A DNA stretch of 64,000 bases from the NCBI GenBank assembly GCA_963662795.1, contig OY759746.1:1696001-1760000 (forward strand), given 5' to 3'. Of the stretch, positions 16,048-46,015 are shown one piece after another (positions within the stretch are counted from its first letter, which is position 1; the number at the start of each line of letters is the position of its first letter). The notes beneath the pieces are model-generated. The model was not told where the DNA came from. It saw only the letters and a program-made list of their open reading frames with translations, and made no database searches. Both the position numbers and the translations under genes were made by a program. This DNA is from Spirochaetia bacterium. Lineage in GTDB: Bacteria > Spirochaetota > Spirochaetia > CADAEX01.

Positions 16048-16101
16048 TTGACAAAATAAAGCATACAGACATAAAATAGTACAGTCTAATTGTCATACAA
16101 T
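16048..16101 (+). promoter_or_regulatory. Promoter plus FadR-type operator (site 1)
   Basis: TTGACA 16048-16053, TAAAAT 16072-16077, palindrome ATTGTCATACAAT 16089-16101. Confidence 0.75.
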
Positions 16102-16129
16102 AAGAAAATCAATAATATGGGGGAATTCG

Positions 16130-17197
16130 ATGAATGTACCTGAAAAAATGAAGGCTGCGGTTCTTTTTGACTGGAATGACGTAAGAGTGGTCGAAAGGCC
16201 TGTTCCGTCACCCGGTGCGGATGAAGTTCTGATTAAAGTTGAGTCTTGTTCTATATGCGGCGGCGACGTGAAAATAATAACAAGGGGAATGCTTAAACAG
16301 CCTCCCATGGGAGATTTCATCATCGGACATGAATATGCCGGGATTATAGTGAAGAAAGGATCTTCAGTTGATGAGTTTAATATCGGAGACAGGGTAACGG
16401 TTGAGGTTCACAAGGGCTGCGGAAGATGCAAGAACTGTCTCGACGGAAAGCAGACTGCCTGTTTAAACTACGGCAATAAGGAGAAGGGGCATATTGCCAA
16501 CGGTTTTACAACAAACGGCGGTTTTGCCGAATATGCGGTGAATCATGTCAATACAGTAAGTCTTATCCCTGATAATATTTCATTTGACGAGGCTACCATG
16601 ATTACGACCATTGGTACGCCTCTTTTCGGTATTTCACGGAACGGCGGATTTATTGCAGGTGATTCAGTCCTTGTAATAGGGCCCGGTTCCATTGGCCTGA
16701 TGGCTGTTCAGTGCGCAAAAGCGCTCGGCGCCGGAAAAGTAATACTTGCCGGAACCAGAAAGGAAAGACTGGCCCTTGGGAAAAAACTCGGGGCGGAATA
16801 CACAGTCAATGTGAGAGAGGAAGATGCAATCGCATATGTCAAATCCCTTACGGGCGGACACGGCGCAGACCTTGTTCTTATTGCTTCCGGTACAACAGAT
16901 GCATTCCAGCTTGCCTTAAGGACAGTAAGAAAAGGGGGAGATATAACAATTCTCGCCCATTTTGAGGATCCTGTCACTATTGATGTAGGGCTTGCTGTTC
17001 AGAATATGAACAACATTTTTACCATCAGGGGCGAAGGCCGCCAGTGTGTTCACAGGGGACTTGAGCTTATGAGAGAAGGTAAGGTCAGCGGCAAGGAAAT
17101 TATTACCCACTCATTCAGGCTTGATCAGATAAAGGAAGCTTTTGAAGTATTTATGGGAAGAAAAGAAGGCGCCATCAAGGTTGTAGTTCATCCATAA
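16130..17197 (+). CDS. Zn-dependent dehydrogenase, paralog set A
   Basis: ICGGD, GHEY, CGRCKNC...C, GHIANGFTTNGG, GPGSIG, FTIRGEG. Confidence 0.9.
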   Translation: MNVPEKMKAAVLFDWNDVRVVERPVPSPGADEVLIKVESCSICGGDVKIITRGMLKQPPMGDFIIGHEYAGIIVKKGSSVDEFNIGDRVTVEVHKGCGRCKNCLDGKQTACLNYGNKEKGHIANGFTTNGGFAEYAVNHVNTVSLIPDNISFDEATMITTIGTPLFGISRNGGFIAGDSVLVIGPGSIGLMAVQCAKALGAGKVILAGTRKERLALGKKLGAEYTVNVREEDAIAYVKSLTGGHGADLVLIASGTTDAFQLALRTVRKGGDITILAHFEDPVTIDVGLAVQNMNNIFTIRGEGRQCVHRGLELMREGKVSGKEIITHSFRLDQIKEAFEVFMGRKEGAIKVVVHP

Positions 17198-17239: not shown

Positions 17240-18160
17240 ATGAGTGATATTTATAGATATATGGATCTTGGTATAGTTCATTTTAAGGCTTTCCCTGAGA
17301 TTGTTGACGGCGGCGGTGCGATTATCGATTCGCTGAAAAAACTTGTCGAAGATGAATTCTGGACTGCTGTAGAGATAGGCTGGATCAAGGATGATAAGAA
17401 AAGAAGCGAAGTCAGAAAACTTCTTGAAATATCGGCCATGAAAGTATGTTATGCCTGCCAGCCGAGGGTATTATCCCAGAAACTTAATTTAAACTCTTTT
17501 GACAAGGCGGAAAGGCGCAAGGCAATTGAGGGTGTGAAAAAAGGTATTGATGAGGCATACCATATCGGTGCGACATCAATCCGCGTACTTTCCGGAAAAG
17601 ACCCGGGAGATGAAAAACGGGAAGAGGCAAAAAAGATTTTTGTTGATTCTCTGTCGGAACTGTGTGAATACAACCGTGACTTTGGCGATGCAATGCTTTA
17701 TATGAAAATTTTTGACAGGGATATTGATAAAAAGGCCCTGATCGGACATTTCAGTGACGCGGCAGATGTAGCGGAAGCGGTTTACTCGAAATACAAAAAC
17801 TTCGGAGTGCTTGCAGATCTTTCCCATTTTCCTCTTTTGAGGGAAAAACCCGAAGAAGCAATTCCTCTTGTTGAGAAATTCCCTATGCATTTTCATCTCG
17901 GCAATTGTATAATGAGAGACCGAAAACATCCCCTGTACGGAGATCTTCAGCCCAGGTTCGGAATTCCCGGCGGCGAGACTGATGTTAAAGAGGTTGCGGA
18001 CTTTTTCAGGCTTCTGCTTAAGAGGAAGCTTGTTTCTCCCGAAAAACGCCCTGTTGTAAGTGTAGAGGTGAGGCCGCTATTGATGGAAGAATACTCCGAA
18101 GCCATTATTGCACAGGCAAAAAGGGTAATTAAGCTTGCATGGGCGGCAGCACAGGAATAA
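17240..18160 (+). CDS. Sugar-phosphate isomerase/epimerase-like TIM-barrel protein
   Basis: AP-endonuclease-2/xylose-isomerase-like pattern: DLSHFPL, HFHLGN, YGD..PRFG, SVEVRP. Confidence 0.75.
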   Translation: MSDIYRYMDLGIVHFKAFPEIVDGGGAIIDSLKKLVEDEFWTAVEIGWIKDDKKRSEVRKLLEISAMKVCYACQPRVLSQKLNLNSFDKAERRKAIEGVKKGIDEAYHIGATSIRVLSGKDPGDEKREEAKKIFVDSLSELCEYNRDFGDAMLYMKIFDRDIDKKALIGHFSDAADVAEAVYSKYKNFGVLADLSHFPLLREKPEEAIPLVEKFPMHFHLGNCIMRDRKHPLYGDLQPRFGIPGGETDVKEVADFFRLLLKRKLVSPEKRPVVSVEVRPLLMEEYSEAIIAQAKRVIKLAWAAAQE

Positions 18161-18261: not shown

Positions 18262-19260
18262 ATGAAAAATTTTATGAAAATAACAGTTGCAGCAGTTTTA
18301 TTGATTGCATCTGTTTCCTTCGTTTTCGCGGCAGGCGGTAGTGAAGCTGCGTCTGAAGCTGCAGAAACAAGTGTTAAGTTTCCTGAAAAGCCGATAAGCT
18401 TTCTTATCCCGTTCGGAGCAGGCGGAGATGCCGACCTTCTCGGAAGGGCACTTGTAAGTTCAATGGATAAGATAGTAGGCCAGCCGGTTGTTCCTGTAAA
18501 CAGGCCTGGCGCGGGCGGCGGTATAATGTACGGCGAACTTCACAAAGCAGCACCGGACGGATACACAGCCGGATGGAGCTCTACTTCAATTCTTACGACA
18601 ACTATCATGGGCAATGTTCCTTTCCCCTATACCGATTTTGAAAATCTCTGTGTTGTTGGATATACATCCATGCCGATTGCAGTTCTTGCAGACTCACCGT
18701 GGAAAACCACAGATGAACTTGTCGCATGGGCAAAAAAGAACCCCGGCAAGCTTAAAATCGGTAACGCCGGTACAGGAAGCGGAACACACCTTACAGCGGT
18801 AATGTTTCAGCAGGCAACAGGTGTTCAGGCAATCCATGTTCCGCTTGGGGCAGAAAGAAGAATTGCAAGCCTCCTCGGAGGAGAAGTTGAAGCTGTATGC
18901 GTACCTCTTCCTGAAATTGCTCCCCAGGTAAATGCCGGCAAAGCAAGAATCCTCGGAGTATCAACTGCAAAAAGAGATCCGTCATTTCCCGATGTTCCTT
19001 CATTTAAAGAACAGGGCTATGATGTTGTAATGGACCTTTTCAGGGGTGTAAGTCTTCCCAAGGGAACAGACCCTGCTGTCGTAGCCATTCTCGAAAAAGC
19101 TTTCAAGGCTGCTTCAGAGAGCAAGGAATTCCAGGACCTTTCAAACAAAACCGGTTTTGTTGTTGATTTCAAGGGCAAGGCTGATTTTGAAGTAGTCCTC
19201 GCTGATCAGTATAAGAGAGTTTACGCCGCAATGGATGCCGGCGGGTTGATTAAAAAATAA
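18262..19260 (+). CDS. tctC: Tripartite tricarboxylate transporter substrate-binding protein
   Basis: FPEKPI..IPFGAGGDAD, NRPGAGG, PDGYT, GTGSGTH. Confidence 0.92.
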   Translation: MKNFMKITVAAVLLIASVSFVFAAGGSEAASEAAETSVKFPEKPISFLIPFGAGGDADLLGRALVSSMDKIVGQPVVPVNRPGAGGGIMYGELHKAAPDGYTAGWSSTSILTTTIMGNVPFPYTDFENLCVVGYTSMPIAVLADSPWKTTDELVAWAKKNPGKLKIGNAGTGSGTHLTAVMFQQATGVQAIHVPLGAERRIASLLGGEVEAVCVPLPEIAPQVNAGKARILGVSTAKRDPSFPDVPSFKEQGYDVVMDLFRGVSLPKGTDPAVVAILEKAFKAASESKEFQDLSNKTGFVVDFKGKADFEVVLADQYKRVYAAMDAGGLIKK

Positions 19261-19276
19261 TAACCACAATAAATAA

Positions 19277-19329
19277 TTCCGGTTTCAGCACTGTTTAAGC
19301 TTTAAGCTGCCGCAGTGCCGGGCCGGGGA
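19277..19329 (+). terminator. Long stem-loop after tctC
   Basis: TTCCGGTTTCAGCACTG...CAGTGCCGGGCCGGGGA imperfect inverted repeat. Confidence 0.5.
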
Positions 19330-19400
19330 TATTTCAGGTTTATGTCATACAGGCTGAAAAATGCAGTTTTCTTTAAACAGCTTTATATCGGATTATAATA

Positions 19401-19856
19401 ATGAAAAAAATTAATATTATCTTGTCTGCCGTTATTTACCTCTTCGCAATCTTTTATTTCTGGCAGATTCTTATGCTTCCTGACAGAAACATGCCGGGAA
19501 CTTTAAAAAGCAGTTTTATGCCTACCCTGCTTTTTGTATTATTGATGATAGTAAACACAGTTTTCCTTGTTGTTTCTTTAGTCAAACCGTGTCTTGAGAA
19601 ATGTGATTATTTTATACATAAATACGAAATATTGGGTATTTTAAAGGTTGTTTCTCTTATCATCGGCTATATCTTTATGATGCGAATTGTAGGATTTGCC
19701 ATAATCACCCCTGTTATTGTTTTTCTTCTCATGAAAATGATGGGGGCGGTAAAATTAAAAGAGATGATCCTTACGTCTGTCCTGGTCTCTGCGTCAGTAT
19801 ATTTGTTGTTTGTCGTTGTTTTCAGGGTGCAGCTGCCTGGCGGAATGATCATATAG
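19401..19856 (+). CDS. tctB: TTT small membrane subunit
   Basis: 151 aa, four TM segments, C-terminal VFRVQLPGG; between tctC and tctA. Confidence 0.85.
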   Translation: MKKINIILSAVIYLFAIFYFWQILMLPDRNMPGTLKSSFMPTLLFVLLMIVNTVFLVVSLVKPCLEKCDYFIHKYEILGILKVVSLIIGYIFMMRIVGFAIITPVIVFLLMKMMGAVKLKEMILTSVLVSASVYLLFVVVFRVQLPGGMII

Positions 19857-19920
19857 ATAATAATCATATAAATATTTCTGTATGATTATTCCGAATACAA
19901 ATTAATTTAGGTGATAATAC

Positions 19921-21450
19921 ATGTTAGAATATATCTTGGCTTCAATGTTTGAAGTATTGAAATGGCAAAACCTTTTAGCGTCTTTGCTGGGGGTCGCGTT
20001 CGGACTGTTTATCGGGGCAACCCCCGGACTCACAATATCCCTGGGAATGGTGCTGCTGCTTCCAATAACTTTTTCTCTTGATCCTGTTACATCTGTCTGC
20101 CTTCTTCTGGGCCTTTACGCGGCCGGAATGACGGGCGGTTCATTTTCTGCGATACTTCTCAATATTCCGGGAACACCTTCGGCATCGGCGACAGCTATTG
20201 ACGGGCATATTATGGCTCAGCAGGGGAAAGCAGGTCAGGCCCTGGGAACCGCAATTATCGCGTCTTTCATCGGAGGGATAATCGGGCTTTTCTGTCTTTC
20301 AGCGATATCCCCTTTTCTCGCGAAAGCTGCGCTCAAATTCGGAGCGCCTGAACTTTTCGCCCTTGTTCTGCTGGGAATTACACTGATATGCAGCTTCGGA
20401 CAGCAGTCTCTGTCGAAAAGCGTGATAGCAGGACTGATAGGTTTGATAATTATGACAGCGGGTCTTGATTCAATGACGGGAACGCCCCGGTTTACATTCG
20501 GTATGATGGACCTTCAGGCAGGGATCCCTTTCCTTCCTGCAATGATAGGGCTGTTTGCGATTCCTCAGATAATTGCAGGATTGACAAGCAAGTTGAGCGT
20601 CATTCCGAAGTATGATAAAAAAATAACAGGTATACTGCCGAAATTTTCAGATATCGGAAAAAGAATGAGAGCAATACTGACCGGGGCCTTTATCGGAACA
20701 GGTATAGGGGCAATTCCGGGAGCGGGCGGGGCTATCGCTGTTTTTCTCGCTTACGACGCATCAAAAAAGATTTCAAAGGATAAGGAAAATTACGGCAACG
20801 GCTCAGCTGATGGAATTGCGGCGCCTGAGGCTGCCAATAACGCGGTAGGGGGCGGAGCCCTTATACCGATGCTTACGCTCGGAATACCCGGGGATCCCAT
20901 CACCGCGATACTTCTCGGATCACTTATGATTCACGGTCTTATACCGGGTCCCCTTCTTTTTGAAACAAATCCCCAGTTTGTATTTTCAATCTTCTGGGCA
21001 TTTTTAATTGCAAATATTTTTAATCTTGTTGTTTCATTTACCAGCATTAATTTCTGGGTAAGAATCCTGAAAGTACCGCAAAGGATACTCCTTCCAATAA
21101 TTCTTGTTCTCTGTGTTGTCGGTTCCTATTCACTCAGAAATACTTTTTTTGATACAGGTATAATGATATTTTTCGGAATCCTTGCTTTCTTTATGAAAAA
21201 ATACGGATTTCCGGTTGTTCCTTTGCTTCTGGCGCTGATTCTCGGGCCTAACCTTGAAGAACACCTCAGGATGTCTCTTATAATAAGCCAGGGCAATCCG
21301 ATGGTCTTTGTAAGACATCCGATAAGTCTTTTCTTTATTATTGTATCACTAATCTCACTTACCGCTCCTTTTCTCGTGCCTGCCATTAAAAAAGAACTGG
21401 CAAAGGGCGCGGAGAAATGTACGCCGAAGAGTGATGATATAAATAAATAA
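19921..21450 (+). CDS. tctA: TTT large permease subunit
   Basis: GATPGL, ILLNIPGTPS, APEAANNA, LTLGIPG motifs. Confidence 0.95.
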   Translation: MLEYILASMFEVLKWQNLLASLLGVAFGLFIGATPGLTISLGMVLLLPITFSLDPVTSVCLLLGLYAAGMTGGSFSAILLNIPGTPSASATAIDGHIMAQQGKAGQALGTAIIASFIGGIIGLFCLSAISPFLAKAALKFGAPELFALVLLGITLICSFGQQSLSKSVIAGLIGLIIMTAGLDSMTGTPRFTFGMMDLQAGIPFLPAMIGLFAIPQIIAGLTSKLSVIPKYDKKITGILPKFSDIGKRMRAILTGAFIGTGIGAIPGAGGAIAVFLAYDASKKISKDKENYGNGSADGIAAPEAANNAVGGGALIPMLTLGIPGDPITAILLGSLMIHGLIPGPLLFETNPQFVFSIFWAFLIANIFNLVVSFTSINFWVRILKVPQRILLPIILVLCVVGSYSLRNTFFDTGIMIFFGILAFFMKKYGFPVVPLLLALILGPNLEEHLRMSLIISQGNPMVFVRHPISLFFIIVSLISLTAPFLVPAIKKELAKGAEKCTPKSDDINK

Positions 21451-21478: not shown

Positions 21479-21937
21479 ATGAGCTGTGATAAATGTGATG
21501 AATGCCTGAAATACTACAACAGCGGAAGTACCGGAGGGTATAACTGTGCTGAATCAACCCTGTACGGGCTTGCAAAATATCTGGAAATTGACAGTACCCT
21601 GATTCCCAGAATTGCCACCCCCTTCGGCGGCGGTTTCGGCAGGAACGGTATGATGTGCGGAAGTCTTGCCGCAGGCGGAATGGCCCTCGGTATTGTATAC
21701 GGCCGCGACAGTATTGATGAAGAAAGGGCGCCTGCCTATGAAGCTGTCGACAGGCTTCTTGCGAAATTCAGGGATAATATCGGGAATATAAACTGTCTTG
21801 ATATTACAGGCCTTGACCTCAAGAAAACTCAGCCGACCGATGATGAAAAACTTAAAGTCCATGAAAACATATGCAAACCGCTTGTCCGGAAAGTCTGCGA
21901 ATGGGTAATCGAAGATATTGAGGAACACCGTAAATGA
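21479..21937 (+). CDS. C_GCAxxG_C_C family putative redox protein
   Basis: YNCAES, FGGG, CGSLAAG, NC, C pattern. Confidence 0.85.
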   Translation: MSCDKCDECLKYYNSGSTGGYNCAESTLYGLAKYLEIDSTLIPRIATPFGGGFGRNGMMCGSLAAGGMALGIVYGRDSIDEERAPAYEAVDRLLAKFRDNIGNINCLDITGLDLKKTQPTDDEKLKVHENICKPLVRKVCEWVIEDIEEHRK

Positions 21938-23655
21938 AAAGAGAAAAGCTGCTTGTAATCGGAGGTGTCGCCGCGGGGGCAAAAACCGCGGCAAAAGCCA
22001 GGAGAGAAAATCAGTCGCTTGATATTACAATCCTGTCCAATGAAGATATGATCTCCTATGCCGGGTGCGGGCTTCCTTATTATATCGGCGGTGTTATTGA
22101 GACAGAAGAAGCGCTTAAAATTGTCAAAGCCGAATCTTTTGAAAAAGTGCGGGATATAAAGGTAGAGCTTAATACAGAAGCAAAAGATATTGATCCGGTT
22201 AACAAGACAGTAGCCGCCATTGATTTACTAACAGGTAAAAATAAAAAATATGAATATGATACTCTGGTCATTGCCACCGGTGCAATTCCTTTTCCTCTTC
22301 CGCTCCCGGGGGCAGACCTCCCCGGGATATTTAATCTCAGAACTATCAGGGACTCCAATAAGATAAAAGACGCGGCGGTAAAGACAGCTGCAAAAAAAGG
22401 CCGGGCCCTTGTGATAGGTTCCGGTTTTATAGGAATTGAAACCGCGGAAAACCTTTTTGATATGGGAATTGAGACTGTTATTGTTGAGATGAAGGACCAG
22501 ATTCTGCCGGGTTTTGATTACGATGTATCCCTTTACATCAGGTATTTCATGGAGCAGAAAGGTGTACAGATAAAGACAGACGAAATGGTTACCGGTTTTA
22601 TTTCCCTGGGAAATGGAAAATTAAGAGTATCACTTCGTGATTCAGATGATATTGATGTGGATTTTGTCGTTTCAGCAGCCGGTGTTAAAGCCAATACATC
22701 AATTGCGGTCAATTGCGGAATAAAAACAGGTATTGCCGGCGCCATCAAGGTTGATGATAATTTTGAAACAAATATCAAAGACATATTTGCTGTAGGCGAT
22801 TGTGTTGAAATGAAAAACCGTATTACCGGTAAAGAGTGCTGGGTCCCGCTCGGTTCTACTGCAAACAAGATGGGCAGGATCATGGCGGAGAAACGGTTCG
22901 GAGGGTCTTCAGAGATTTTCCCCGGAGTCCTTGGCACAATGATAATCAAGGTTTTCGAAATGACAGCAGGAAAAACCGGTCTGACCGAAAGGGATGCCAA
23001 AGCCGCGGGATTCGATTATGATACTGTAATAGTTCCCGGAAACGACAGCGCCGGATACTATCCGGGATTCAAAGAGATAATAACCAAACTTATATATGAG
23101 AAAAAAAGCGGAAGGGTTCTCGGCGGGCAGGTGTTCGGCTGGGGAGTTGTTGATAAACCGGTAGATATCCTTGTTACGGCAATAAGCTTTAACGCTACAA
23201 TATTTGATCTTTCAAATCTTGATCTTGCCTATGCCCCCCCGTTTTCCAACGCTATGGCATCAACTATCGCATCCTCCAATACCGGAAGAAATAAACTTAC
23301 GGGAAGGGTTAAAACAATACATCCTGTAGATCTTTTTTCAGCTGAGAAAAACAGAAGTGTTACAATCCTTGATATCAGAACAGATGATGAGGTTGCTGAA
23401 TGGTCCATACCGGGTTCAATCCATATTGAAAATACTTACCTCACGGAAAGAATCGGCGAACTTGATAAAAATAAAGAATATGCCATCCTCTGCAGAAGGG
23501 GAATAAGGGCGTATAACGCCTATAAGATTCTTGAAAAAGCAGGTTTTGAAAAAATTGCGGTTTTATCCGGAGGAACTGTGTTTTCCGCACACTTCTGGGA
23601 AAAACTCAGGCAGGATACAGTGCTGCAAAAAGGCACCCCTTCGGGTAAAGGATGA
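21934..23655 (+). CDS. CoA-disulfide reductase/NADH oxidase family flavoprotein fused to a rhodanese domain
   Basis: GGVAAG, SYAGC redox Cys, GSGFIG, AVGD, LAYAPPF, C-terminal rhodanese CRRGIRA. Confidence 0.9.
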   Translation: MKREKLLVIGGVAAGAKTAAKARRENQSLDITILSNEDMISYAGCGLPYYIGGVIETEEALKIVKAESFEKVRDIKVELNTEAKDIDPVNKTVAAIDLLTGKNKKYEYDTLVIATGAIPFPLPLPGADLPGIFNLRTIRDSNKIKDAAVKTAAKKGRALVIGSGFIGIETAENLFDMGIETVIVEMKDQILPGFDYDVSLYIRYFMEQKGVQIKTDEMVTGFISLGNGKLRVSLRDSDDIDVDFVVSAAGVKANTSIAVNCGIKTGIAGAIKVDDNFETNIKDIFAVGDCVEMKNRITGKECWVPLGSTANKMGRIMAEKRFGGSSEIFPGVLGTMIIKVFEMTAGKTGLTERDAKAAGFDYDTVIVPGNDSAGYYPGFKEIITKLIYEKKSGRVLGGQVFGWGVVDKPVDILVTAISFNATIFDLSNLDLAYAPPFSNAMASTIASSNTGRNKLTGRVKTIHPVDLFSAEKNRSVTILDIRTDDEVAEWSIPGSIHIENTYLTERIGELDKNKEYAILCRRGIRAYNAYKILEKAGFEKIAVLSGGTVFSAHFWEKLRQDTVLQKGTPSGKG

Positions 23656-24041
23656 AAATATTTTCCGCGCTTGCGCTTGCCTCGGTAATTGCTTTTGCAA
23701 GTGAACTGTTATCCGGATTGCTGCTTCCCATGATACCGGGAAGCGTAATCGGGATTATAATTATGACAATCCTCCTTTATTCAAAGAGTATAAAGTATAA
23801 AACCATTGAGGAAGTCTCGGGATTTTTTCTTGATAATCTGGTTTTTTTTCTGATTCCTGTTGTTGTAAGCTGCGCTGATATAGGCAGATATGCCGGCAAA
23901 TATCTTTTTAAAATATTACTGCTGATAGCTGCCGGAACAATTATCGTAATGCTGGTTACCGGAATAACATCCCAGATTTTAATGAAGCTTTTTCACGGGC
24001 ATGAGACAGCGGGCCCCGGACGCGGAACGGACGGGAAATGA
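23652..24041 (+). CDS. CidA/LrgA family membrane protein
   Basis: PGSVIG, FFLIPVVV; paired with LrgB. Confidence 0.85.
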   Translation: MKIFSALALASVIAFASELLSGLLLPMIPGSVIGIIIMTILLYSKSIKYKTIEEVSGFFLDNLVFFLIPVVVSCADIGRYAGKYLFKILLLIAAGTIIVMLVTGITSQILMKLFHGHETAGPGRGTDGK

Positions 24042-24771: not shown

Positions 24772-24815
24772 TTGACATCCGGTAAAGCCGTGCTAAAATA
24801 ATATTGTAATACAAT
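24772..24815 (+). promoter_or_regulatory. Promoter plus FadR-type operator (site 2)
   Basis: TTGACA 24772-24777, TG-c-TAAAAT 24794-24799, ATTGTAATACAAT 24803-24815. Confidence 0.75.
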
Positions 24816-37743: not shown

Positions 37744-37778
37744 TTTACTTTAAAGCGGATAATATGCCAGGAGGAATA

Positions 37779-38701: not shown

Positions 38702-39580
38702 ATGTCATCAGACGGAATGAAAAGAGGCAAAAGTCAGAATATCCTGGATCTCGGATATACAGATGTAAGGGAACATCTTAAGAAAAACGATACAATTATC
38801 GTAAGTATGGGATCGATTGAAAAACATGGAGCGCACTGCCCGCTGGGAACAGACAGTTTTACAGCAATGGGTGTTATTGAAGAAGCTGCCAGATTAACAG
38901 ACACACTTTATACACCTTTAATACCTGTCGGATATTCCCCCCACCACATGGGAAGACAGGGCGAAGGAACAGGAACACTCACTTTTTCAGGAGATACTTA
39001 CAGAAGAATAGTATATGATCTTGCGAAAAGCCTTATATACCACGGCTACAACAAACTGGTTTTTGTTACACATCATGGAAGCAACTCCAAGGTAATTGAT
39101 GATGTACTTAGAAAAATCAGGTATGAAACCGGATGTTTTGTCGGATGGTTTAAAACTCCGACAGAAAGAAATTACAGATTTATCGCAGATATCCTTGAGG
39201 GAACACCTGAGGAAACACCGGGCTGGCACGCAGGGGAGCTTGAGACATCAACAGCATGGGCATACAATCCTGAATCTGTTGCAATGGAACTCGCAAAAGA
39301 AGACAGAACACATGCGCCGAAGTGGATGACAAAAGAGTTTACAAAACATGACGGGTCAGGTTTTGTAACATTCAGGGGCGATGAATGCATGTGGGTACCG
39401 ATGGAACACCATGAATATTCAGATACAGCAACAATTGGAAATCCTTTAAGAGCTTCCAGGGAAAAGGGAGAGAAAATCCTTAAGAGAGGCGGAGAACTTC
39501 TCGCGGCTCTTATCGAAGAAATTAAAAAATTCGATATCAAGGTTCCGGAAGAAAAAAGAGCTTTCAACAACCGCGCGTAG
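38702..39580 (+). CDS. Creatininase-family metallo-hydrolase
   Basis: GSIEKHG.H.PLGTD, GYSPHH, HHGSN, HAGELETS. Confidence 0.9.
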   Translation: MSSDGMKRGKSQNILDLGYTDVREHLKKNDTIIVSMGSIEKHGAHCPLGTDSFTAMGVIEEAARLTDTLYTPLIPVGYSPHHMGRQGEGTGTLTFSGDTYRRIVYDLAKSLIYHGYNKLVFVTHHGSNSKVIDDVLRKIRYETGCFVGWFKTPTERNYRFIADILEGTPEETPGWHAGELETSTAWAYNPESVAMELAKEDRTHAPKWMTKEFTKHDGSGFVTFRGDECMWVPMEHHEYSDTATIGNPLRASREKGEKILKRGGELLAALIEEIKKFDIKVPEEKRAFNNRA

Positions 39581-39775: not shown

Positions 39776-40546
39776 ATGAAAAGACTTGAAGGAAGGGTTG
39801 CAATTGTAACCGGATCAGCGCAGGGAATGGGTCTTGCCATCGCAAAAGCGCTTGGCAATGAAGGCGCAACAATAATAATAACAGACATAAACAGCGAACA
39901 GGTTCAAAAAACTGTTTCAGCTCTTAAAACAGAAGGATATACCGCAGACGGATACAGCATGAACGTTACTGTTGATGCGCAGGTTGGGGAAGTATTTGAC
40001 GCGGTTAAAAATAAATACGGCAAACTGGACATTCTGGTTAATAACGCGGGAGGTGCGCTTAACACCCCGTACAAACTAAATGAGATAGAGGAAAAACACT
40101 GGAATCTTGTCCTTGATGTAAACCTTAAAGGGGCTTTTTTCTGCTGCAGAAAAGCCATCAATATAATGGCAGAGCAGGGAGGCGGCGCAATTGTAAACAT
40201 TTCAGCTCTTGCGGCTCACTACAGGGCAAGCCTCGCAGGCGTCCAGTATACAGCAGCAAAGGCCGGGGTTGAAGGACTTACGAGGCAGCTTGCCTACGAC
40301 TGGGGCGAAAAAAATATCCGGATAACCGGAGTCGCGCCGACTATCACCATGACAGGGGCGCGGGTTAAAGGGCTCTGGGATGACAAGGGTAAGGATGAGC
40401 AGGATAAGACACTTAAAAATATCCCGCTCCGCAGGCTCAGCACACCGCAGGAAATCGCAGCTGCTGTTGTATTCCTGGCATCTGATGAAGCATCATACAT
40501 AACAGGAATTACACTTGATGTCAGCGGCGGCAGATATCTCAGATAA
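39776..40546 (+). CDS. Short-chain dehydrogenase/reductase (classical SDR)
   Basis: TGSAQGMG, NNAG, YTAAK, YITG.TL.VSGG. Confidence 0.92.
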   Translation: MKRLEGRVAIVTGSAQGMGLAIAKALGNEGATIIITDINSEQVQKTVSALKTEGYTADGYSMNVTVDAQVGEVFDAVKNKYGKLDILVNNAGGALNTPYKLNEIEEKHWNLVLDVNLKGAFFCCRKAINIMAEQGGGAIVNISALAAHYRASLAGVQYTAAKAGVEGLTRQLAYDWGEKNIRITGVAPTITMTGARVKGLWDDKGKDEQDKTLKNIPLRRLSTPQEIAAAVVFLASDEASYITGITLDVSGGRYLR

Positions 40547-40572
40547 CATAAGTCAATAATGGAGTCAAATAA

Positions 40573-41553
40573 ATGAGCGGAAAACACAAGGTATTGCTTC
40601 CTCAGCCTATTGAAAAGGAAGCCCATGATTATCTTCTTGATAACAATTTTGAAGTTGTTGTATGTTCAAAATGTGAACATGATGAAGTTGCTGAAAAAAT
40701 CGCCGATGCGGAAGCTGTGGTTTTAAGAACAGGAATTAAAATAACCCGCGATCTTATGGAAAGAGGAAAAAAACTTAAAACAATCAGCCGGACAGGCGCG
40801 GGAGTGGATAACGTTGATCTTGATGCTGCAACTGACGCCGGAGTGGTTGTTACGTCAAGCCTCGGGGCAAATACCACAAGCGTTATTGAGCATGCGCTCA
40901 TGTTTATTCTTTCTCTTTCAAAGAATACCATAAAAATTGATTCCGAAGTTCGTAAAGGCAATTTCAGGGTGAGGTATCAGAACCTCTCGAGCGATGTAAG
41001 GGAAAAGACACTTGGACTTATCGGGTTCGGGAGAATAGGATCAGGGCTTGCCAAAATTTGCCGCGACAGTTTTGCGATGAAAATAGTTGCGAATGATGAT
41101 TTTCTCCCGCCGGAAGCCAAGAAAACATTTTCCGACTGGGTTGAATTTACAGATATTGATACAGTGCTTGCCAAATCAGATTATATATCAATCCATGTAC
41201 CGCTTACAAAGGAAACAAAAAATCTTCTTGACTATGACAGAATCAAAAAAATGAAGAAAAACGCTTTCCTGATAAATACTTCAAGAGGCGGCATAATAAA
41301 TGAAAAAGACCTGGTTAAAGCGCTGAAAGAGGGCATAATCGCCGGAGCAGGGCTTGATGTATTTGAAAATGAACCCATCGAGATGGAAAGTGAGCTGCTT
41401 AAAATGGAAAGTGTAATTCTTTCTCCCCACACTGCGGCTCTTACTGTAGAATGTACACTCAGAATGGCAATGGAAGGGGTAAAGAGGGTTGTAAAGTTTT
41501 TTAACGGAGAGAAGCCGGAAAACGTTGCCAATACTGCGGTTTTGGATTTATAA
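40573..41553 (+). CDS. D-isomer-specific 2-hydroxyacid dehydrogenase (SerA-like, no ACT domain)
   Basis: RTGAGVDNVD, GFGRIG, HVPLT, INTSRG, LDVFENEP, SPHTA. Confidence 0.92.
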   Translation: MSGKHKVLLPQPIEKEAHDYLLDNNFEVVVCSKCEHDEVAEKIADAEAVVLRTGIKITRDLMERGKKLKTISRTGAGVDNVDLDAATDAGVVVTSSLGANTTSVIEHALMFILSLSKNTIKIDSEVRKGNFRVRYQNLSSDVREKTLGLIGFGRIGSGLAKICRDSFAMKIVANDDFLPPEAKKTFSDWVEFTDIDTVLAKSDYISIHVPLTKETKNLLDYDRIKKMKKNAFLINTSRGGIINEKDLVKALKEGIIAGAGLDVFENEPIEMESELLKMESVILSPHTAALTVECTLRMAMEGVKRVVKFFNGEKPENVANTAVLDL

Positions 41554-41612
41554 TAAAAATCTGTTAAATCATATTTCTTTTGGAAATAAATACTAAAAAT
41601 TACGGAGTCATA

Positions 41613-42161
41613 ATGGGATGCACCTGCTGTAAGAACGGTAATTCTGCGCTTAATGCCGAAGCAAAAGACATTATCAGCATTACCGGAAAAGAAAAAGAGA
41701 AGACTATACCCATATTACAGGAAATTCAGAGCAGAAAAGGGTATATACCTGAAGATCTTCTAAATGAGGTTTCTGAAGTTACGGGGATTGCTGTAAGCGA
41801 CTTTTACAGTGTTGCTACATTTTATTCACAGTTCAGATTTACACCGCTCGGAAAACACCTTATCAGGGTCTGCAACGGAACTGCCTGTTTTGTTTCAGGT
41901 GCGGATATACTGTTTGATACACTTTCTGATCTTCTGAAAGTCGGTGACGGCGAGACAACCGAAGACGGGCTTTTTACTCTTGAAACTGTTGCATGCCTGG
42001 GCTGCTGTTCGCTTGCCCCTGTTGTGATGATAAGCGGAAGGGTTTACGGCAAGCAGAACTCTGACAGCATCCGGAAACTTGTCAATTCAATAATAGCTGA
42101 TGAGGCAAAAGGTGAAAAAGCAGCGGCAGCCGCCGCCGGACAAACAGGAGGGACAGCTTGA
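41613..42161 (+). CDS. NuoE/HydC-like [2Fe-2S] subunit
   Basis: VATFY, CNGTAC, ACLGCC. Start ATG 41613 after GGAG. Confidence 0.92.
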   Translation: MGCTCCKNGNSALNAEAKDIISITGKEKEKTIPILQEIQSRKGYIPEDLLNEVSEVTGIAVSDFYSVATFYSQFRFTPLGKHLIRVCNGTACFVSGADILFDTLSDLLKVGDGETTEDGLFTLETVACLGCCSLAPVVMISGRVYGKQNSDSIRKLVNSIIADEAKGEKAAAAAAGQTGGTA

Positions 42162-43951
42162 ACAATCAATTGCTGAAAGTCGGACTCGGTTCATGCGGAA
42201 TAGCGGCCGGTGCCCAGGATGTCTACAATTATCTCTTGTCAGACATTGATAAGGAAAATTATCCCGGACTGGACCTCGGAAAAACTTCATGTATAGGACT
42301 CTGTTTTGCCGAGCCTATTGTGGAGTTTCATGACGGTGATAAAAGAATTGTCTACGGCAACGTTGATGTAAAGCTCGCGGAAAAAATTCTGAAAGGGATT
42401 TCCGCCGGTTCGCTTCCTGAAGAAAACAGAATTCTTGAAGAAAAAGGTGAGGGCAACCGGGTTGCGGCTGATGATAATATTGTGAAATATACAGGCCGCC
42501 AGGTAAAACTTGCCCTTAAAAACTGCGGAATAATTGATCCTGAAAGCATTGACGAATATACAGCAAGGGGCGGCTACAAGGCGCTTGAAAAGGCTGTTGC
42601 TTCAATGCAGGGGCAGGAAATTATTGATGTAATGAAAGAATCAGGTCTTAAGGGAAGAGGCGGCGCCGGCTTCCTGACCGGGCAGAAATGGGAATTCCTC
42701 CTTAGGGCAAAGGGAGATAAAAAATACCTTGTCTGCAACGCGGACGAAGGGGACCCCGGAGCTTTTATGGACAGGGCTATCCTTGAGGGAGATCCTCATG
42801 TGGTTATCGAAGGGATGATAATCGCGGCAAAAGCGACAGGCGCCTACAAAGGGTATATCTACTGCAGGGCGGAATATCCGCTTGCCGTAAAAAGGCTCCA
42901 CAAGGCAATTGCCGACGCTAAAGAAAAAAACTTTTTAGGTGAAAATATATTCGGATCAGGTTTTTCTTTTGACATAATAGTCAAGGAAGGCGCCGGTGCG
43001 TTTGTCTGCGGAGAGGAAACAGCGCTGATTATGTCAATACAGGGCGGAAGGGGAATGCCTAACTTAAGGCCTCCGTTTCCGGCGGAATCGGGGATCCATC
43101 AGTCTCCGACAAATATTAATAACGTAGAAACATACGCGAATGTTCCGGGGATAATACTTAACGGACCGGAATCTTTCAACAAATATAAATCAGGCAACAG
43201 CACGGGAACAAAGGTTTTTGCGCTTGCCGGAAAGGTTAAAAGGGTTGGTCTTGTAGAAGTGCCGATGGGACTTACTATCCGCGAGGTAGTTGAAGAAATT
43301 GGAGGAGGCTCATCAACGGGACTTCCCCTTAAAGCTGTGCAGATGGGAGGTCCTGCCGGAGGGTGTATCCCTGAATCAATGTTTGATACTCCAATCAATT
43401 ATGATTCAATCAACGCAACCGGGGCGATAATGGGTTCCGGCGGGCTTATTGTTATGGACGCAAGTTCCTGTATGGTAGATGTAGCGAGGTATTTCCTTCA
43501 GTTTACGCAGAATGAATCATGCGGAAAATGTACTTTCTGCAGAATAGGAACAAAGAGGATGCTTGAAATCCTTGAGCGCATTACTACAGGCAGCGGCACT
43601 CTCAAAGACATCGACATGCTTGAGGAACTCGCCAACCACGTGAGAAAAACATCGCTGTGCGGACTCGGCCAGCTTGCGCCGAATCCTGTTCTTACTACAC
43701 TTAAATATTTCAGGGATGAATATCTTGCCCATGTAAACGATAAAAAATGTTCGGCAGGGGTCTGCAGATCTCTCATCGAGATTAAAATAGACCCTGACAA
43801 GTGCACAGGGTGTACGTTGTGCGCAAGAGTGTGTCCTGTTAATGCCATAACGGGTGAGAGAAAAATGACACATGTCATAGACAGCGGTATATGTACCAGA
43901 TGCGGTATGTGTATTCAGAAATGCAAATTCGACGCAATATACAGGATTTAA
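42158..43951 (+). CDS. NuoF/HydB-like FMN/NAD-binding subunit, electron-bifurcating architecture
   Basis: GRGGAGF, NADEGDPGAFMDR, FVCGEETAL, ESCGKCTFC, KKCSAGVC, C-terminal 2x[4Fe-4S]; N-terminal thioredoxin-like domain. Confidence 0.92.
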   Translation: MNNQLLKVGLGSCGIAAGAQDVYNYLLSDIDKENYPGLDLGKTSCIGLCFAEPIVEFHDGDKRIVYGNVDVKLAEKILKGISAGSLPEENRILEEKGEGNRVAADDNIVKYTGRQVKLALKNCGIIDPESIDEYTARGGYKALEKAVASMQGQEIIDVMKESGLKGRGGAGFLTGQKWEFLLRAKGDKKYLVCNADEGDPGAFMDRAILEGDPHVVIEGMIIAAKATGAYKGYIYCRAEYPLAVKRLHKAIADAKEKNFLGENIFGSGFSFDIIVKEGAGAFVCGEETALIMSIQGGRGMPNLRPPFPAESGIHQSPTNINNVETYANVPGIILNGPESFNKYKSGNSTGTKVFALAGKVKRVGLVEVPMGLTIREVVEEIGGGSSTGLPLKAVQMGGPAGGCIPESMFDTPINYDSINATGAIMGSGGLIVMDASSCMVDVARYFLQFTQNESCGKCTFCRIGTKRMLEILERITTGSGTLKDIDMLEELANHVRKTSLCGLGQLAPNPVLTTLKYFRDEYLAHVNDKKCSAGVCRSLIEIKIDPDKCTGCTLCARVCPVNAITGERKMTHVIDSGICTRCGMCIQKCKFDAIYRI

Positions 43952-43960
43952 GGGAAAAAC

Positions 43961-46015
43961 ATGAGTGATGTACTTGTTAAAATAAACGGGGCTGATGTAT
44001 CGGTTCCTGAAGGTTCTACAATACTGGAAGCCGCCATAAAGGCAGGCTATGACATACCGACTCTTTGTAACGCTGAGGGGTTAAAGCCTTTTACAAGCTG
44101 CTTTGTCTGCGCTGTAAAGGTTGAGGGCGGCAGGGGAAACCTTGTTCCCTCCTGCGCCACAAAGGTAAGGCCCGGCATGAGCGTTACTGTCGAATCGGAA
44201 GAAGTTGATTCCGCGAGAAAGATGTGTATAACGCTGCTTGTGTCAGACCACTGCGGCGACTGTCTTCCCCCGTGCCAGAGCGAATGTCCTGCCTCAATCG
44301 ATATTAAGGGATTTCTTGCTGCAATCGCGGACAGAAAACCGGAGAAGGCGGCGGAAATAATAAGGGACAAGGCGCCGATTCCAGGCACTCTGGGAAGGAT
44401 CTGCCCAAGGCCGTGCGAAGATCAGTGCAGAAGAACAAGGGTTGAGAAACCGATTGCCATCTGCAACATGAAACGCTTTGCTTCGGATATGGAGATAGAG
44501 AAATACGGAGAGATAAGGCTTCCTTCACCCGCCCCTGATACAGGGAAAAAAGTTGCGGTAATCGGAGCAGGACCTGCCGGAATGACCGCGGCATATTATT
44601 TAAGGCAGGCAGGGCACGCTGTAACTGTTTTTGAGAAAAACAGCAAGTCAGGCGGTATGCTGAGGTATGGAATCCCTTTTTACCGGCTTCCGGATAAGAC
44701 CCTTGCCCTTGAAATGGGCGCGATAGAGAAAACAGGCGTAAAGGTAAAATACGGCGTTGAAATCGGAAAGGATATTGATGTCAAATCGCTTGAAAAAGAC
44801 TATGACGCGCTCATGATAGCAATCGGCGCCCAGGGTGCCTCTTCAATGAGAATTGAGGGTGAGGATACTGAAGGAGTTTACGCCGGTATAGAATACCTCG
44901 GGAAAGTAGCGAGAGGCGAAAATCCGCATGTGGGCAATAAGGTACTTGTTGTCGGCGGAGGGAATACTGCCATTGATGCTTCAAGAACATCGCTCAGGGC
45001 CGGCGCCGATGTAACAATACTGTACAGAAGAACAAGGGCGGAAATGCCTGCAAGCGACTTCGAAATTGAAGAAGCCGGGGAAGAAGGGGTGAAAATTGAT
45101 TACCTTGTTGCTCCGGTTTCAATAACCAGAAGCGGTAAAATACTCAAGGTAAAATGCATAAGAATGGCTCAGGGCGAACCTGACGCATCAGGGAGAAGAA
45201 GACCGGTTCCGGTTGAAGGCTCTGAATTCGAGATAGAAGCTGATACTGTTATCGGCGCAATCGGCCAGAGAGTTATGCCTGACTGCATCAAGCCACTCGG
45301 TATTGAAATAGACAGAAGCGGCAACATTGTCGCAAACCCTGACTCTTTTGTCACAAGCCGCCCCGGCATATTTGCCGCGGGTGACTGCCAGACCGGAGCA
45401 GACATGGCGGTCCGCGCTGTCGGCAACGGAAGAAAAGCGGCAGCCGCCATAAACCAGTACATAACAGGCGAACAGGCAGCCGGCGAGAAGAAACTATTTA
45501 ATTCGAAAATGGGGCCGCTTGAAAGCGTGCCTGAATCCCTCTTCGAAGGCGTTGAAAAGGCAGACAGGATACAGATGCCCCTTATTGAGCATTCTGTAAG
45601 AGTCGGCACTTTCGATGAGATAGAAAAAGGGTTTGACTATGAAAAGGCGGTTGAAGAGGCGAAAAGATGCCTTAAGTGCGGATGCGACAAGATCGACGAC
45701 TGCAAGCTGAGGGCCTACGCAACCAGATATGATGTTGATCAGAACCTTTTCGGAGGCGACATGAGGACATATTCAAGCGATACAAGCCGGAGCGACATCA
45801 AGATGGAACAGGGCAAGTGCATAAGCTGCGGTTCCTGCGTCAGGGCCTGCGCCGAAATTAAGGGGCTTAATGTGCTTTCATTTGTCAACAGGGGATTCGC
45901 GACACGGATGACTGTTCCTTTCGGAAAGTCGCTTGTAGATTCTACCTGTGACGGATGCGGGGAGTGCGCAAAGGTGTGTCCCACCGCTGCGATAATGAAA
46001 AAAGATATCAAATAG
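43961..46015 (+). CDS. Fe-S flavoprotein: HydA-type N-terminal Fe-S domains with an inserted GltD-like FAD/NADPH module (StnC/NfnA-like, no H-cluster)
   Basis: IPTLC..SCFVC..SC, HCGDC, CQSECP, GRICPRPCE, GAGPAG, GGGNTAID, YRRTR, EAKRCLKCGC, CISCGSCVRAC, CDGCGECAKVCP. Confidence 0.85.
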   Translation: MSDVLVKINGADVSVPEGSTILEAAIKAGYDIPTLCNAEGLKPFTSCFVCAVKVEGGRGNLVPSCATKVRPGMSVTVESEEVDSARKMCITLLVSDHCGDCLPPCQSECPASIDIKGFLAAIADRKPEKAAEIIRDKAPIPGTLGRICPRPCEDQCRRTRVEKPIAICNMKRFASDMEIEKYGEIRLPSPAPDTGKKVAVIGAGPAGMTAAYYLRQAGHAVTVFEKNSKSGGMLRYGIPFYRLPDKTLALEMGAIEKTGVKVKYGVEIGKDIDVKSLEKDYDALMIAIGAQGASSMRIEGEDTEGVYAGIEYLGKVARGENPHVGNKVLVVGGGNTAIDASRTSLRAGADVTILYRRTRAEMPASDFEIEEAGEEGVKIDYLVAPVSITRSGKILKVKCIRMAQGEPDASGRRRPVPVEGSEFEIEADTVIGAIGQRVMPDCIKPLGIEIDRSGNIVANPDSFVTSRPGIFAAGDCQTGADMAVRAVGNGRKAAAAINQYITGEQAAGEKKLFNSKMGPLESVPESLFEGVEKADRIQMPLIEHSVRVGTFDEIEKGFDYEKAVEEAKRCLKCGCDKIDDCKLRAYATRYDVDQNLFGGDMRTYSSDTSRSDIKMEQGKCISCGSCVRACAEIKGLNVLSFVNRGFATRMTVPFGKSLVDSTCDGCGECAKVCPTAAIMKKDIK

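Follow-up and report, generated by a model that had tools for sequence, protein, structure and literature searches.

Which compound, and by what route, could be the target of some 30 kb of co-directional catabolic genes that appear to share one operator? The question is posed by a 64,000-nt stretch of the genome of a Spirochaetia bacterium (the window, genome positions 1696001-1760000; the genome is a single contig of 3.93 Mb with 39.7% G+C), in which the 29 proteins encoded between window positions 16048 and 46015 fall into four operons read in the same direction. With modest confidence, we read them as a regulon under a GntR-family regulator with an FCD domain, serving an oxidative ring-opening, phosphorylating route for a sugar-like cyclic acid. 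The regulatory architecture and the co-occurrence of the genes are observations; we infer all of the chemistry, the order of the steps and the substrate. A preliminary description of the locus, made from sequence alone, had proposed that a polyhydroxylated and probably anionic or cyclic compound is oxidized, has its ring opened by hydrolysis and is cleaved by an aldolase, and this is still the best reading.

The case for a single regulon starts at the promoters. The palindrome ATTGTNNTACAAT, with at most one mismatch, occurs at 16089, 24803, 30025 and 34691 (operators O1 to O4; Table 1), for a count of seven strand matches where 1.8 are expected, and none of 100 shuffles reached seven. The four sites follow the -10 element of the sigma-70-like promoters P1 to P4 by 11, 3, 3 and 3 nt respectively. 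The three best plus-strand promoter matches in 15500-35400 (29994, 12/12; 16048 and 24772, 11/12) are all box promoters; the fourth box promoter (34659, 10/12, extended TG) ranks under two other plus-strand 11/12 sites, 30038 and 31609. The earlier claim of a shared palindrome just past the -10 at four promoters therefore held up in both the shuffle test and the promoter scan, and its finer points are borne out on reading the sites: O1 and O4 agree over 19 of 22 bp (GTACAGT-nnn-ATTGTCATACAA), and a weaker copy, TTATGTCATACAGG, precedes tctB at 19340. The 9-nt core of this weak box, TGTCATACA, has 27 occurrences in the genome (both orientations), three of them in the regulon. Both O1 and O4 are preceded, at a distance of 3 nt, by GTACAGT (16079-16085 and 34681-34687), which is the half-site ACTGTAC in reverse, and ACTGTAC stands beside the box again at two related loci (L005 and L007); these copies suggest a possible extra half-site for a second dimer.

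Genome-wide, 81 places match the palindrome with at most one mismatch, four of them inside the 19-kb regulon stretch. Among the best 60 of 87 places scoring at least 12 bits in a position weight matrix scan, none outside the regulon combines at least 16.8 bits with a promoter match of at least 10/12; the matrix was built from the same four sites, so that the ranking by score is circular, whereas the promoter geometry is not.

The box is also conserved beyond this genome. Neighborhoods were collected with the creatininase-family hydrolase of operon 4 as seed (15 genome loci and 80 metagenome loci; Spirochaetota assemblies supplied the close relatives of window proteins). Window proteins were placed on these loci by tblastn, and the co-occurrence counts given below come from the 41 loci of at least 8 kb, some of them likely duplicates (L004 and L020 are one contig; L039/L041, L046/L047 and L073/L083 have identical gene rows). 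In three G+C-rich loci (L005, L007, L013) greedy calling of open reading frames (ORFs) produced spurious antisense frames; these were left out of the Pfam scan and judged by tblastn only. The 160 nt preceding the orthologous regulator gene contain a box, two mismatches being allowed, in 8 of 12 loci; of 226 random windows drawn from these loci as controls, 6 contain one. The box-bearing regulator orthologues are 42-49% identical, and those of L006 and L032 carry the same box; further boxes stand upstream of orthologues of the binding protein SBP1 or of the ABC genes in L001, L012 and L013.

Could the boxes be something other than a shared operator, either chance AT-rich palindromes or targets of a different regulator among the 12 with an FCD domain that this genome encodes? 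A G+C content of 39.7%, the 81 one-mismatch matches and similar boxes beside transport operons at genome positions 880193 and 536754 might be read in this way. We consider it exceedingly improbable, given the shuffle result, the position of all four boxes at the same place relative to strong promoters, and their conservation with the regulator across species. The two distant boxes, both on the minus strand, have the same promoter geometry: ATTGTAATACAAA at 880193 precedes a TAXI-type TRAP binding protein, a fused permease and a cupin, and CTTGTATTACAAC at 536754 precedes a split transketolase, a 3-hydroxyisobutyrate-dehydrogenase-like gene and TRAP DctQMP, with an FCD regulator nearby at 529456. 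As candidate extra members of the regulon they were set aside, being not assignable to this regulator over the other 11.

The regulator combines an N-terminal GntR winged helix (PF00392, 65 bits) with a C-terminal FCD domain (PF07729, 77 bits). It had been called FadR; it is not FadR itself, and its best named matches, NanR (101 bits, cut-off 260) and LldR (98 bits, cut-off 311), fall far short. Its winged helix-turn-helix plus FCD organization, the palindrome with a TGT-N3-ACA core overlapping the promoter, and its predicted autoregulation are shared with FadR-subfamily GntR repressors of sugar-acid regulons (NanR, LldR, ExuR, UxuR); it scores far under the cut-off of every named model. The operator type of this subfamily is reportedly TnGTnnnACnA, as given by Rigali and colleagues in 2002. 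One regulon under an autoregulated FCD-type GntR (FadR-subfamily) regulator, with predicted binding at the boxes, is supported by the box statistics, by the box in the regulator's own promoter and by conservation across loci. A second FCD-type GntR regulator is encoded on the minus strand at 12418-13128, between the regulon and the inositol cluster described below; no ATTGTnnTACAAT box was found in its upstream region.

What do the four operons encode? The 29 proteins were scanned against Pfam and NCBIfam models with curated cut-offs, and every gene family of the preliminary description is present and co-directional. Operon 1 holds a Zn-dependent dehydrogenase (ADH1), an AP_endonuc_2 TIM barrel, TctC/B/A and, beyond the families listed earlier, a C_GCAxxG_C_C protein, a fusion of CoA-disulfide reductase (CoADR) with rhodanese, and LrgA/LrgB. 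Operon 2 encodes two Peripla_BP_6 binding proteins (SBP1, SBP2), a cupin, ADH2 and ADH3; operon 3, LIV/Urt-like ABC ATPases and permeases with ADH4; and operon 4, the GntR/FCD regulator, ADH5, a UPF0261 protein, a DHDPS-family aldolase, the creatininase-family hydrolase, a short-chain dehydrogenase/reductase (SDR), a D-2-hydroxyacid dehydrogenase (2HADH) and a NuoE/NuoF/GltD-fusion trio.

The preliminary description recognized no described pathway with this set. There is a template, the oxidative inositol pathway IolG-IolM-IolN-IolO of Thermotoga maritima, which Rodionova and colleagues reportedly described in 2013, and a true copy of it lies in the same window. The cluster at 145-12311 consists of a ROK regulator (minus strand), a sugar ABC system and then iol-type enzymes (core 5066-11238). 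Against the NCBIfam models of the Thermotoga route (NF041097, NF041098, NF041099) and of IolG, it exceeds the cut-offs for IolG (470 bits, cut-off 355), IolN (526, 245) and IolM (530, 450), and has an IolO-like epimerase below cut-off (234, 300); it also encodes two TIM barrels (one Hyi/OtnI-like), a second GFO/IDH/MocA dehydrogenase and a further Zn-dependent dehydrogenase. By its NCBIfam names (scyllo-inosose 3-dehydrogenase, 3-dehydro-scyllo-inosose hydrolase, 5-keto-L-gluconate epimerase) this cluster is a predicted copy of the Thermotoga-type route.

The regulon likewise encodes together, as do both of the cluster architectures described below, a Zn-dependent dehydrogenase, a creatininase-family hydrolase and an AP_endonuc_2 barrel, and the named models that ADH1/ADH5, the hydrolase and the TIM barrel match best include IolM, IolN and IolO respectively. 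It thus shares three enzyme families with the Thermotoga route, whose logic is oxidation to a beta-diketone, hydrolytic ring opening and epimerization of the keto acid. All three equivalog cut-offs are missed (Table 1; ADH5 reaches 202 bits, and ADH1-5 together span 168-202 bits against the IolM model), and the regulon hydrolase is only 27% identical to the window's true IolN. On these scores the regulon's Zn-dehydrogenases, hydrolase and TIM barrel are only distant paralogues of IolM, IolN and IolO, and the set is not wholly mapped onto the characterized pathway. That the regulon is itself a true inositol cluster is ruled out by the same NCBIfam cut-offs; the inositol cluster is its upstream neighbor. 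Unlike the Thermotoga route, the regulon has no GFO/IDH/MocA (IolG-type) or Peripla_BP_4 protein among the 29 scanned, takes up its substrate by carboxylate-type tripartite (TTT) and LIV-like ABC systems rather than a sugar ABC system, and has in addition the putative kinase UPF0261, an SDR, a 2HADH and a HOGA-like aldolase; its regulator is of GntR type, and that of the window's Iol cluster of ROK type. Phloroglucinol degradation was also considered and rejected: its ring opener (DPGC) belongs to the "cyclase" family and not to the creatininase family, and the BKACE lyase and 3-hydroxyacyl-CoA dehydrogenase are absent.

For the TIM barrel, an AlphaFold (AF2) model (pLDDT 88.7, from a 13-sequence alignment) finds T. 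maritima TM0416 (2zvr, E 3e-12) as its best Foldseek match, followed by tagatose/psicose 3-epimerases and UlaE. Among the transport proteins, TctC is nearest in the PDB to the terephthalate-binding protein BugD (4x9t), and the ABC system matches UrtD/UrtE/UrtC/UrtB best, all below cut-off; as ligand clues, the solved relatives of SBP1, SBP2 and TctC gave generic or unliganded names only.

If the operons form one pathway, their genes should be found together elsewhere, and the hydrolase-seeded analysis shows that many of them are. Of the 41 loci, 30 carry UPF0261, 24 the DHDPS-family aldolase, 24 the SDR, 22 the 2HADH, 18 ADH1, 15 TctA, 14 the GntR regulator, 12 the TIM barrel, 8 ADH5, 6 SBP1 and 3 the GCAxxG protein. 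Two architectures can be distinguished. Type A (24 loci, spirochaete-like) runs GntR-ADH5-UPF0261-DHDPS-hydrolase-SDR-2HADH; type B (17 loci without DHDPS, with a hydrolase 62-68% identical) runs LacI-hydrolase-UPF0261 (a 35% paralogue)-ADH1-TIM-TctCBA. Ten type-B loci were examined by ORF; in eight of them UPF0261 is followed by a gene of about 200 residues, and all eight products belong to PF00596, the class II aldolase family. Two gene orders bridge the types: ADH1-TIM-ADH5-UPF0261-DHDPS-hydrolase-SDR-2HADH in a single row (L048), and TctCBA-GCAxxG-CoADR-GntR-ADH5-DHDPS-hydrolase-SDR (L029). Since ADH1, TIM and TctCBA are direct neighbors of the hydrolase in type B, operons 1 and 4 belong to one functional system. 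The GCAxxG-CoADR pair thus also follows TctCBA in L029, and GCAxxG adjoins the cluster in L073/L083.

The hydrolase is the common element. Its subfamily numbers 693 proteins at E <= 1e-20, the best 120 clusters being 63-95% identical and about 287 aa long, with source labels that include Spirochaetota, Firmicutes, Pseudomonadota, SAR324 and Thermodesulfobacteriota and no name past "creatininase family"; searches of the ESM Atlas likewise returned only "creatininase family" clusters, and the solved relatives of the hydrolase, as of the SDR and ADH5, are generic. Residues E40, H42, D51, H124/H125 and E179/E181, which we take from creatininase structures to be metal ligands, are invariant in 12 diverse members. 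A literature search on the subfamily, or on a hydrolase-UPF0261 cluster, found no paper, in coverage that mostly excludes subscription journals and supplements.

Cyclic amide hydrolysis being the founding activity of the creatininase family, the regulon might instead serve to degrade a compound resembling creatinine, a hydantoin or a lactam, in other words a cyclic amide or ureide, which an Urt-like system would import and an amidohydrolase open. The ABC genes match UrtB-E best, the binding proteins weakly match UrtA and solved urea-binding proteins, and aminotransferases stand beside some related clusters (L006, L064, L092). All the Urt scores are far below cut-off, though, the regulon has no ammonia- or urea-handling gene, and the constant partners (polyol-type dehydrogenases, a ketose epimerase-like barrel, a kinase, aldolases) fit carbohydrates rather than N-heterocycles, so that we find this possibility highly improbable.

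Whether the route involves a phosphorylation depends on UPF0261. The preliminary description had noted the lack of a sugar kinase or CoA ligase and called the route non-phosphorylative. The first statement stands insofar as none of the 29 proteins matches a canonical family of either kind, but UPF0261 now counts as a kinase family, and "non-phosphorylative" is the weakest part of that reading. In the available portions of its description, MarK (Saro_1862) of Novosphingobium aromaticivorans is an ATP-dependent, ADP-forming kinase of phenolic lignin monomers and the single UPF0261 protein with a shown activity, in a family present in all domains of life, plants included (PMC12624787). The same portions report that changing Glu to Lys at MarK position 16, the equivalent of Tm-1 Lys20, raises activity about 1600-fold, with the lysine tied to ATP binding (PMC12624787). 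Like MarK, the regulon protein has a two-domain architecture (PF06792 and PF23189), and it carries the D-T-K lysine natively: K13 of its L-D-T-K13 motif corresponds to MarK position 16 by alignment offset (query residue 3 to residue 6 of the chain in the MarK structure, 9mpy). MarK's substrates, as far as the accessible text goes, are phenolic lignin monomers, and it works with a carboxylase (PMC12624787), whereas the regulon protein is accompanied by polyol dehydrogenases, aldolases and a hydrolase.

That the regulon's UPF0261 acts as a kinase is suggested by three independent contexts: the class II aldolase directly downstream of it in type B, the FGGY kinase standing in its place in a paralogous module of this genome (L098), and the logic of the Iol (IolC/IolJ), Otn and Ula pathways. 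The named NCBIfam models of the class II aldolase family have members that act on phosphorylated sugars. The L098 module (genome 1822001-1840000), the third of its kind, consists of an FCD regulator, a DHDPS-family gene (67%) and a 2HADH (57%), with a divergent FGGY kinase-Zn-ADH-TRAP DctPQM-LarA-like row, and adjoins a 2-oxoacid:ferredoxin oxidoreductase. At another locus (L062:4526-6900), not many kb away from a type-B cluster, a separate UPF0261 gene is paired with one for a TIM barrel of the PEP_hydrolase-like kind (PF09370); the pair is a bacterial form of the two halves of plant Tm-1.

The regulon itself has no class II aldolase, and the PF00596-like genes of the genome lie elsewhere. 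Its own aldolase is of class I, and its description as HOGA-like agrees with its nearest solved relative, human 4-hydroxy-2-oxoglutarate aldolase (3s5o; Table 1); the best DapA-named entry is weaker (2yxg, E 1e-41), and the DapA model gives 169 bits against a cut-off of 206. Attempts to reason out one intermediate that would be a substrate for a class II aldolase of the DHAP type and equally for a class I aldolase of the pyruvate type yielded no convincing structure, and the two architectures may diverge after the kinase step.

Another possibility is a linear acid-sugar pathway of the Otn/Oia or Ula/Yia kind, with uptake by TctCBA, a hydrolase that is a lactonase and not a C-C hydrolase, a dehydrogenase and TIM barrel that move the keto group, UPF0261 in place of DUF1537 or FGGY, and an aldolase or decarboxylase leading to triose-level products. 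The Otn pathway handles tetronates, and the Ula and Yia pathways ascorbate and 2,3-diketogulonate. The type-B order LacI-hydrolase-UPF0261-class II aldolase-ADH1-TIM-TctCBA fits this idea, combining as it does, like Otn (OxoTetrIsom, OxoTetrPhDc) and Ula/Yia (UlaE, UlaF), a dehydrogenase, an AP_endonuc_2 barrel, a kinase, a PF00596 protein and an organic-acid transporter. The type-B aldolases match L-ribulose-5-phosphate 4-epimerase, FucA and 3-oxo-tetronate-4-phosphate decarboxylase best, all below threshold; UlaE is among the structural matches of the TIM barrel; a TTT transporter suits an acid; and there are resemblances of the SDR to gluconate 5-dehydrogenase and of the 2HADH to glyoxylate/hydroxypyruvate and phosphoglycerate dehydrogenases. 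Unlike Otn and Ula, however, these clusters have UPF0261 rather than DUF1537 or FGGY as kinase and the creatininase-family hydrolase as constant core, and the regulon replaces the class II aldolase by a class I HOGA-like aldolase with SDR and 2HADH. We know of no lactonase activity in the creatininase family, which counts against such a pathway, and literature searches for one found none. If the open acid is what the transporter brings in, no lactonase would be required, and a UlaD-type decarboxylase is not present. In both architectures the hydrolase is the defining gene and the best conserved one (62-99% identity), suggesting a committed step and not an auxiliary one. On balance we regard a linear acid-sugar pathway as unlikely, though far from negligible.

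The last three genes of operon 4 bear on redox balance. With NuoE-like, NuoF-like and GltD-containing subunits, the trio is a predicted Stn/Nfn-Bfu-type transhydrogenase. Residues 1-683 of the 684-aa third subunit align to residues 1-676 of the 1172 of StnC (8oh5_C, E 3.8e-169), and it also matches 9bov_A and archaeal NfnA (9n5u). The combination of NuoE-like, NuoF-like and 2Fe2S-GltD-FeS subunits is that of StnABC and NfnABC, as the available parts of their descriptions present them (PMC10482914; PMC12018979). In Sporomusa ovata StnABC, according to the accessible portion of the former, an FdhF-like C-terminal domain (residues 683-1172) mediates StnC tetramers; unlike StnC as described there, the regulon subunit lacks this domain of about 490 residues (PMC10482914). 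A further difference from Stn/Nfn-Bfu is that the trio is co-transcribed with a catabolic operon, in close relatives only (3 of 41 loci). ADH1 and ADH5 have G-T-R after the dinucleotide-fold strand, where ADH2, ADH4, IolM and the dehydrogenase at 11256 carry Asp/Glu; this hints at NADP dependence of ADH1 and ADH5 and hence at a possible reason for a transhydrogenase.

How might these parts work together? In the ring-opening route that we favor, a dimer of the regulator would act as repressor, binding ATTGTnnTACAAT at or just past the transcription starts of P1-P4, as the geometry, autoregulation and conservation of the boxes suggest, and would be released by the substrate or an intermediate. 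There would be two uptake systems, TctCBA for a carboxylate and the LIV/Urt-like ABC system with its two binding proteins. The substrate would be cyclic and polyhydroxylated, with a carboxylated cyclitol or the lactone of a sugar acid as the probable candidates: the TTT system implies a carboxylate, the IolM/N/O-like trio a ring that is oxidized and then opened, and the kinase and aldolases a sugar-like chain afterwards. ADH1 and ADH5 would oxidize ring hydroxyls (ADH2-4 and the SDR may be helpers or serve stereoisomers), the creatininase-family metallohydrolase would open the ring with water, and the ketose-3-epimerase-like TIM barrel would epimerize beside the keto group. UPF0261 would then phosphorylate the product with ATP, and the HOGA-like class I aldolase with the 2-hydroxyacid dehydrogenase would yield pyruvate and a C2/C3 acid. 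The Stn/Nfn-type complex would rebalance NADPH, NADH and ferredoxin from up to eight dehydrogenases.

A related proposal, which we think improbable as a full account, is that the regulon serves several related substrates, its modules handling different polyols or acids and partly converging on a hydrolase-kinase-aldolase core. It would explain three binding proteins and five Zn-dehydrogenases, and ADH2, ADH3, the cupin and LrgAB are rarely or never beside the core elsewhere. The core ADH4-ADH5-UPF0261-DHDPS-hydrolase-SDR is moreover duplicated 82 kb away at 98-99% identity, where the binding protein and the regulator are other ones (48% identical in each case) and the box is related without being the same; identical enzymes may thus be used for different inputs. 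Its appeal is limited by ADH1, TIM and TctCBA adjoining the hydrolase in type B, which makes one pathway of at least operons 1 and 4, and it is compatible with the ring-opening route rather than opposed to it. The duplication is a recent segmental one: window 35403-40569 and 33514-34565 correspond to genome 1649388-1654554 and 1648230-1649281 (L096), ADH5-UPF0261-DHDPS-hydrolase-SDR being 99.2% and ADH4 97.9% identical, with the regulator gene and promoter between them missing in the copy. A cupin (92%), a binding protein, an ABC system and an FCD regulator of its own accompany the copy. At L096:6734-6786 (genome ~1642734), TTGACA-17-TATACT is followed 5 nt on by the palindrome ACTGTTAAACAGT, a related but distinct box, perhaps for the paralogous regulator; it precedes a DAO/BFD - Pyr_redox_2 - DUF1667 - DAO/BFD operon that lies upstream of the duplicated genes.

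Several points weigh against the ring-opening regulon as we have drawn it. On the regulatory side, the counts overstate independence through the duplicate loci listed above and the box common to L006 and L032, a recognizable box is absent from 4 of 12 orthologous regulator promoters, and, with 12 FCD regulators and similar boxes elsewhere, the predicted assignment of box to regulator goes by proximity and conservation only. LrgAB (none of 41 loci), CoADR-rhodanese, the cupin and ADH3 (one each) and the Stn genes (three, by NuoF, all in close relatives) are not conserved with the core. As to chemistry, every named-enzyme match of the regulon proteins is far under its curated cut-off; the hydrolase scores 87 bits for creatininase, 75 for MftE and 79 for IolN, values among which C-C, C-N and C-O hydrolysis appear indistinguishable; and the TTT transporter implies a carboxylate, of which the known inositol substrates include none. 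UPF0261 is absent from 7 of the 24 DHDPS-type loci, and with no class II aldolase in the regulon the next step for the kinase product is not evident there. The only shown activity of a UPF0261 protein is, in the available text, on phenolic aromatics and not on sugars (PMC12624787).

Table 1. Coordinates of promoters, operators and genes of the regulon (window positions; bits are model scores)
Feature	Position	Strand	Remark
Promoter P1, TTGACA-18-TAAAAT	16048..16077	+	11/12 match
Operator O1, ATTGTCATACAAT	16089..16101	.	11 nt past -10
ADH1, Zn-dependent dehydrogenase, distant IolM/Tdh relative	16130..17197	+	IolM 200 bits, cut-off 450
TIM barrel, ketose-3-epimerase-like (IolO/UlaE-like)	17240..18160	+	Pfam AP_endonuc_2; IolO 38 bits, cut-off 300
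TctC (18262-19260), TctB (19401-19856), TctA (19921-21450), tripartite tricarboxylate-type transporter, putative carboxylate uptake	18262..21450	+	
Weak box TTATGTCATACAG between tctC and tctB	19340..19352	.	9-nt core same as in O1 and O4
C_GCAxxG_C_C protein (21479-21937) and CoA-disulfide-reductase-like flavoprotein fused to rhodanese (21934-23655)	21479..23655	+	
LrgA/LrgB-like membrane pair, possible organic-acid carrier, lineage-specific	23652..24730	+	0/41 related loci
Promoter P2, TTGACA-16-TAAAAT, and operator O2, ATTGTAATACAAT (24803-24815)	24772..24815	+	
Binding proteins SBP1 (24840-26102) and SBP2 (26171-27463), Peripla_BP_6	24840..27463	+	57% identical
Cupin (27475-27852), ADH2 (27856-28884), ADH3 (28877-29971)	27475..29971	+	
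Promoter P3, TTGACA-16-TATAAT, and operator O3, ACTGTATTACAAT (30025-30037)	29994..30037	+	12/12; kept in L001 at 1323
ABC ATPases (30086-30847, 30880-31575), permeases (31593-32582, 32599-33474), LIV/Urt type; ADH4 (33535-34575)	30086..34575	+	
Promoter P4, TTGACA-17-TACAGT with TG, and operator O4, ATTGTCATACAAG (34691-34703)	34659..34703	+	
GntR-family regulator with FCD domain, predicted to be autoregulated	34721..35422	+	likely start ATG 34730 after AGGTGA
ADH5, Zn-dependent dehydrogenase	35429..36505	+	G-T-R motif
UPF0261 (Tm-1/MarK family), putative ATP-dependent kinase	36511..37743	+	9mpy E 5e-60
DHDPS-family class I aldolase, closest to human HOGA1	37740..38675	+	3s5o E 3.5e-52
Creatininase-family metallohydrolase, putative ring-opening enzyme	38702..39580	+	IolN 79 bits, cut-off 245
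SDR (39776-40546), D-2-hydroxyacid dehydrogenase (40573-41553)	39776..41553	+	
Transhydrogenase-like trio: NuoE-like (41580-42161), NuoF-like (42158-43951), 2Fe2S-GltD-2x4Fe4S subunit (43961-46015)	41580..46015	+	
Long hairpin and T-run, operon 4 end, before convergent LacI gene	46042..46099	.	read from sequence

A few features of the surroundings may be recorded. The hairpin at the end of operon 4 fell outside the automated hairpin scan, whose loop limit is 8. Within operon 2, a 14-bp hairpin with a T-run at 26145-26180, between the SBP1 and SBP2 genes, may be an internal attenuator raising SBP1 over the downstream genes. An alpha/beta hydrolase and a cupin are encoded at 14767-15948 on the minus strand, divergent from operon 1 and sharing its intergenic region, and the type-B clusters L069 and L076, too, are preceded by divergent genes for unrelated alpha/beta hydrolases. 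Beyond the convergent LacI gene, the island at 46123-58530 encodes an HpcH/HpaI aldolase, a class III aminotransferase, DhaK/DhaL, an Fe-dependent alcohol dehydrogenase, an NMT1-like binding protein with an ABC system, an RraA-like protein, a 2HADH and a DUF386 protein.

What would the regulon mean for its owners? The kind of system is already known, namely oxidative-hydrolytic catabolism of cyclitols or acid sugars under a GntR-type repressor, of which this regulon is an uncharacterized variant and an inviting target for discovering enzyme functions. A bolder reading, which we offer tentatively and consider possible though doubtful, is that of an anaerobic pathway not described before and widespread, its source labels being Spirochaetota, Bacillota, Thermodesulfobacteriota, SAR324 and Pseudomonadota. 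Here a distinct creatininase-fold subfamily would carry out, as the committed step, the hydrolytic opening of an oxidized carboxylated cyclitol or of a similar carbocycle, for instance a plant acid of the quinate/shikimate type, UPF0261 would be the first sugar-acid kinase of its family, and the whole would be wired, in spirochaetes, to an electron-bifurcating transhydrogenase. If true, UPF0261/Tm-1-like proteins and the hydrolase subfamily would both acquire a physiological function. The defined operator, the three binding proteins and the repressor offer direct experimental handles on the substrate, and the presence of an Stn/Nfn-type complex in a catabolic operon allows one to test whether redox balancing can be tied to one substrate. 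Identification of that substrate would assign functions to two poorly understood families and add an anaerobic turnover route for plant- or sediment-derived cyclic acids.

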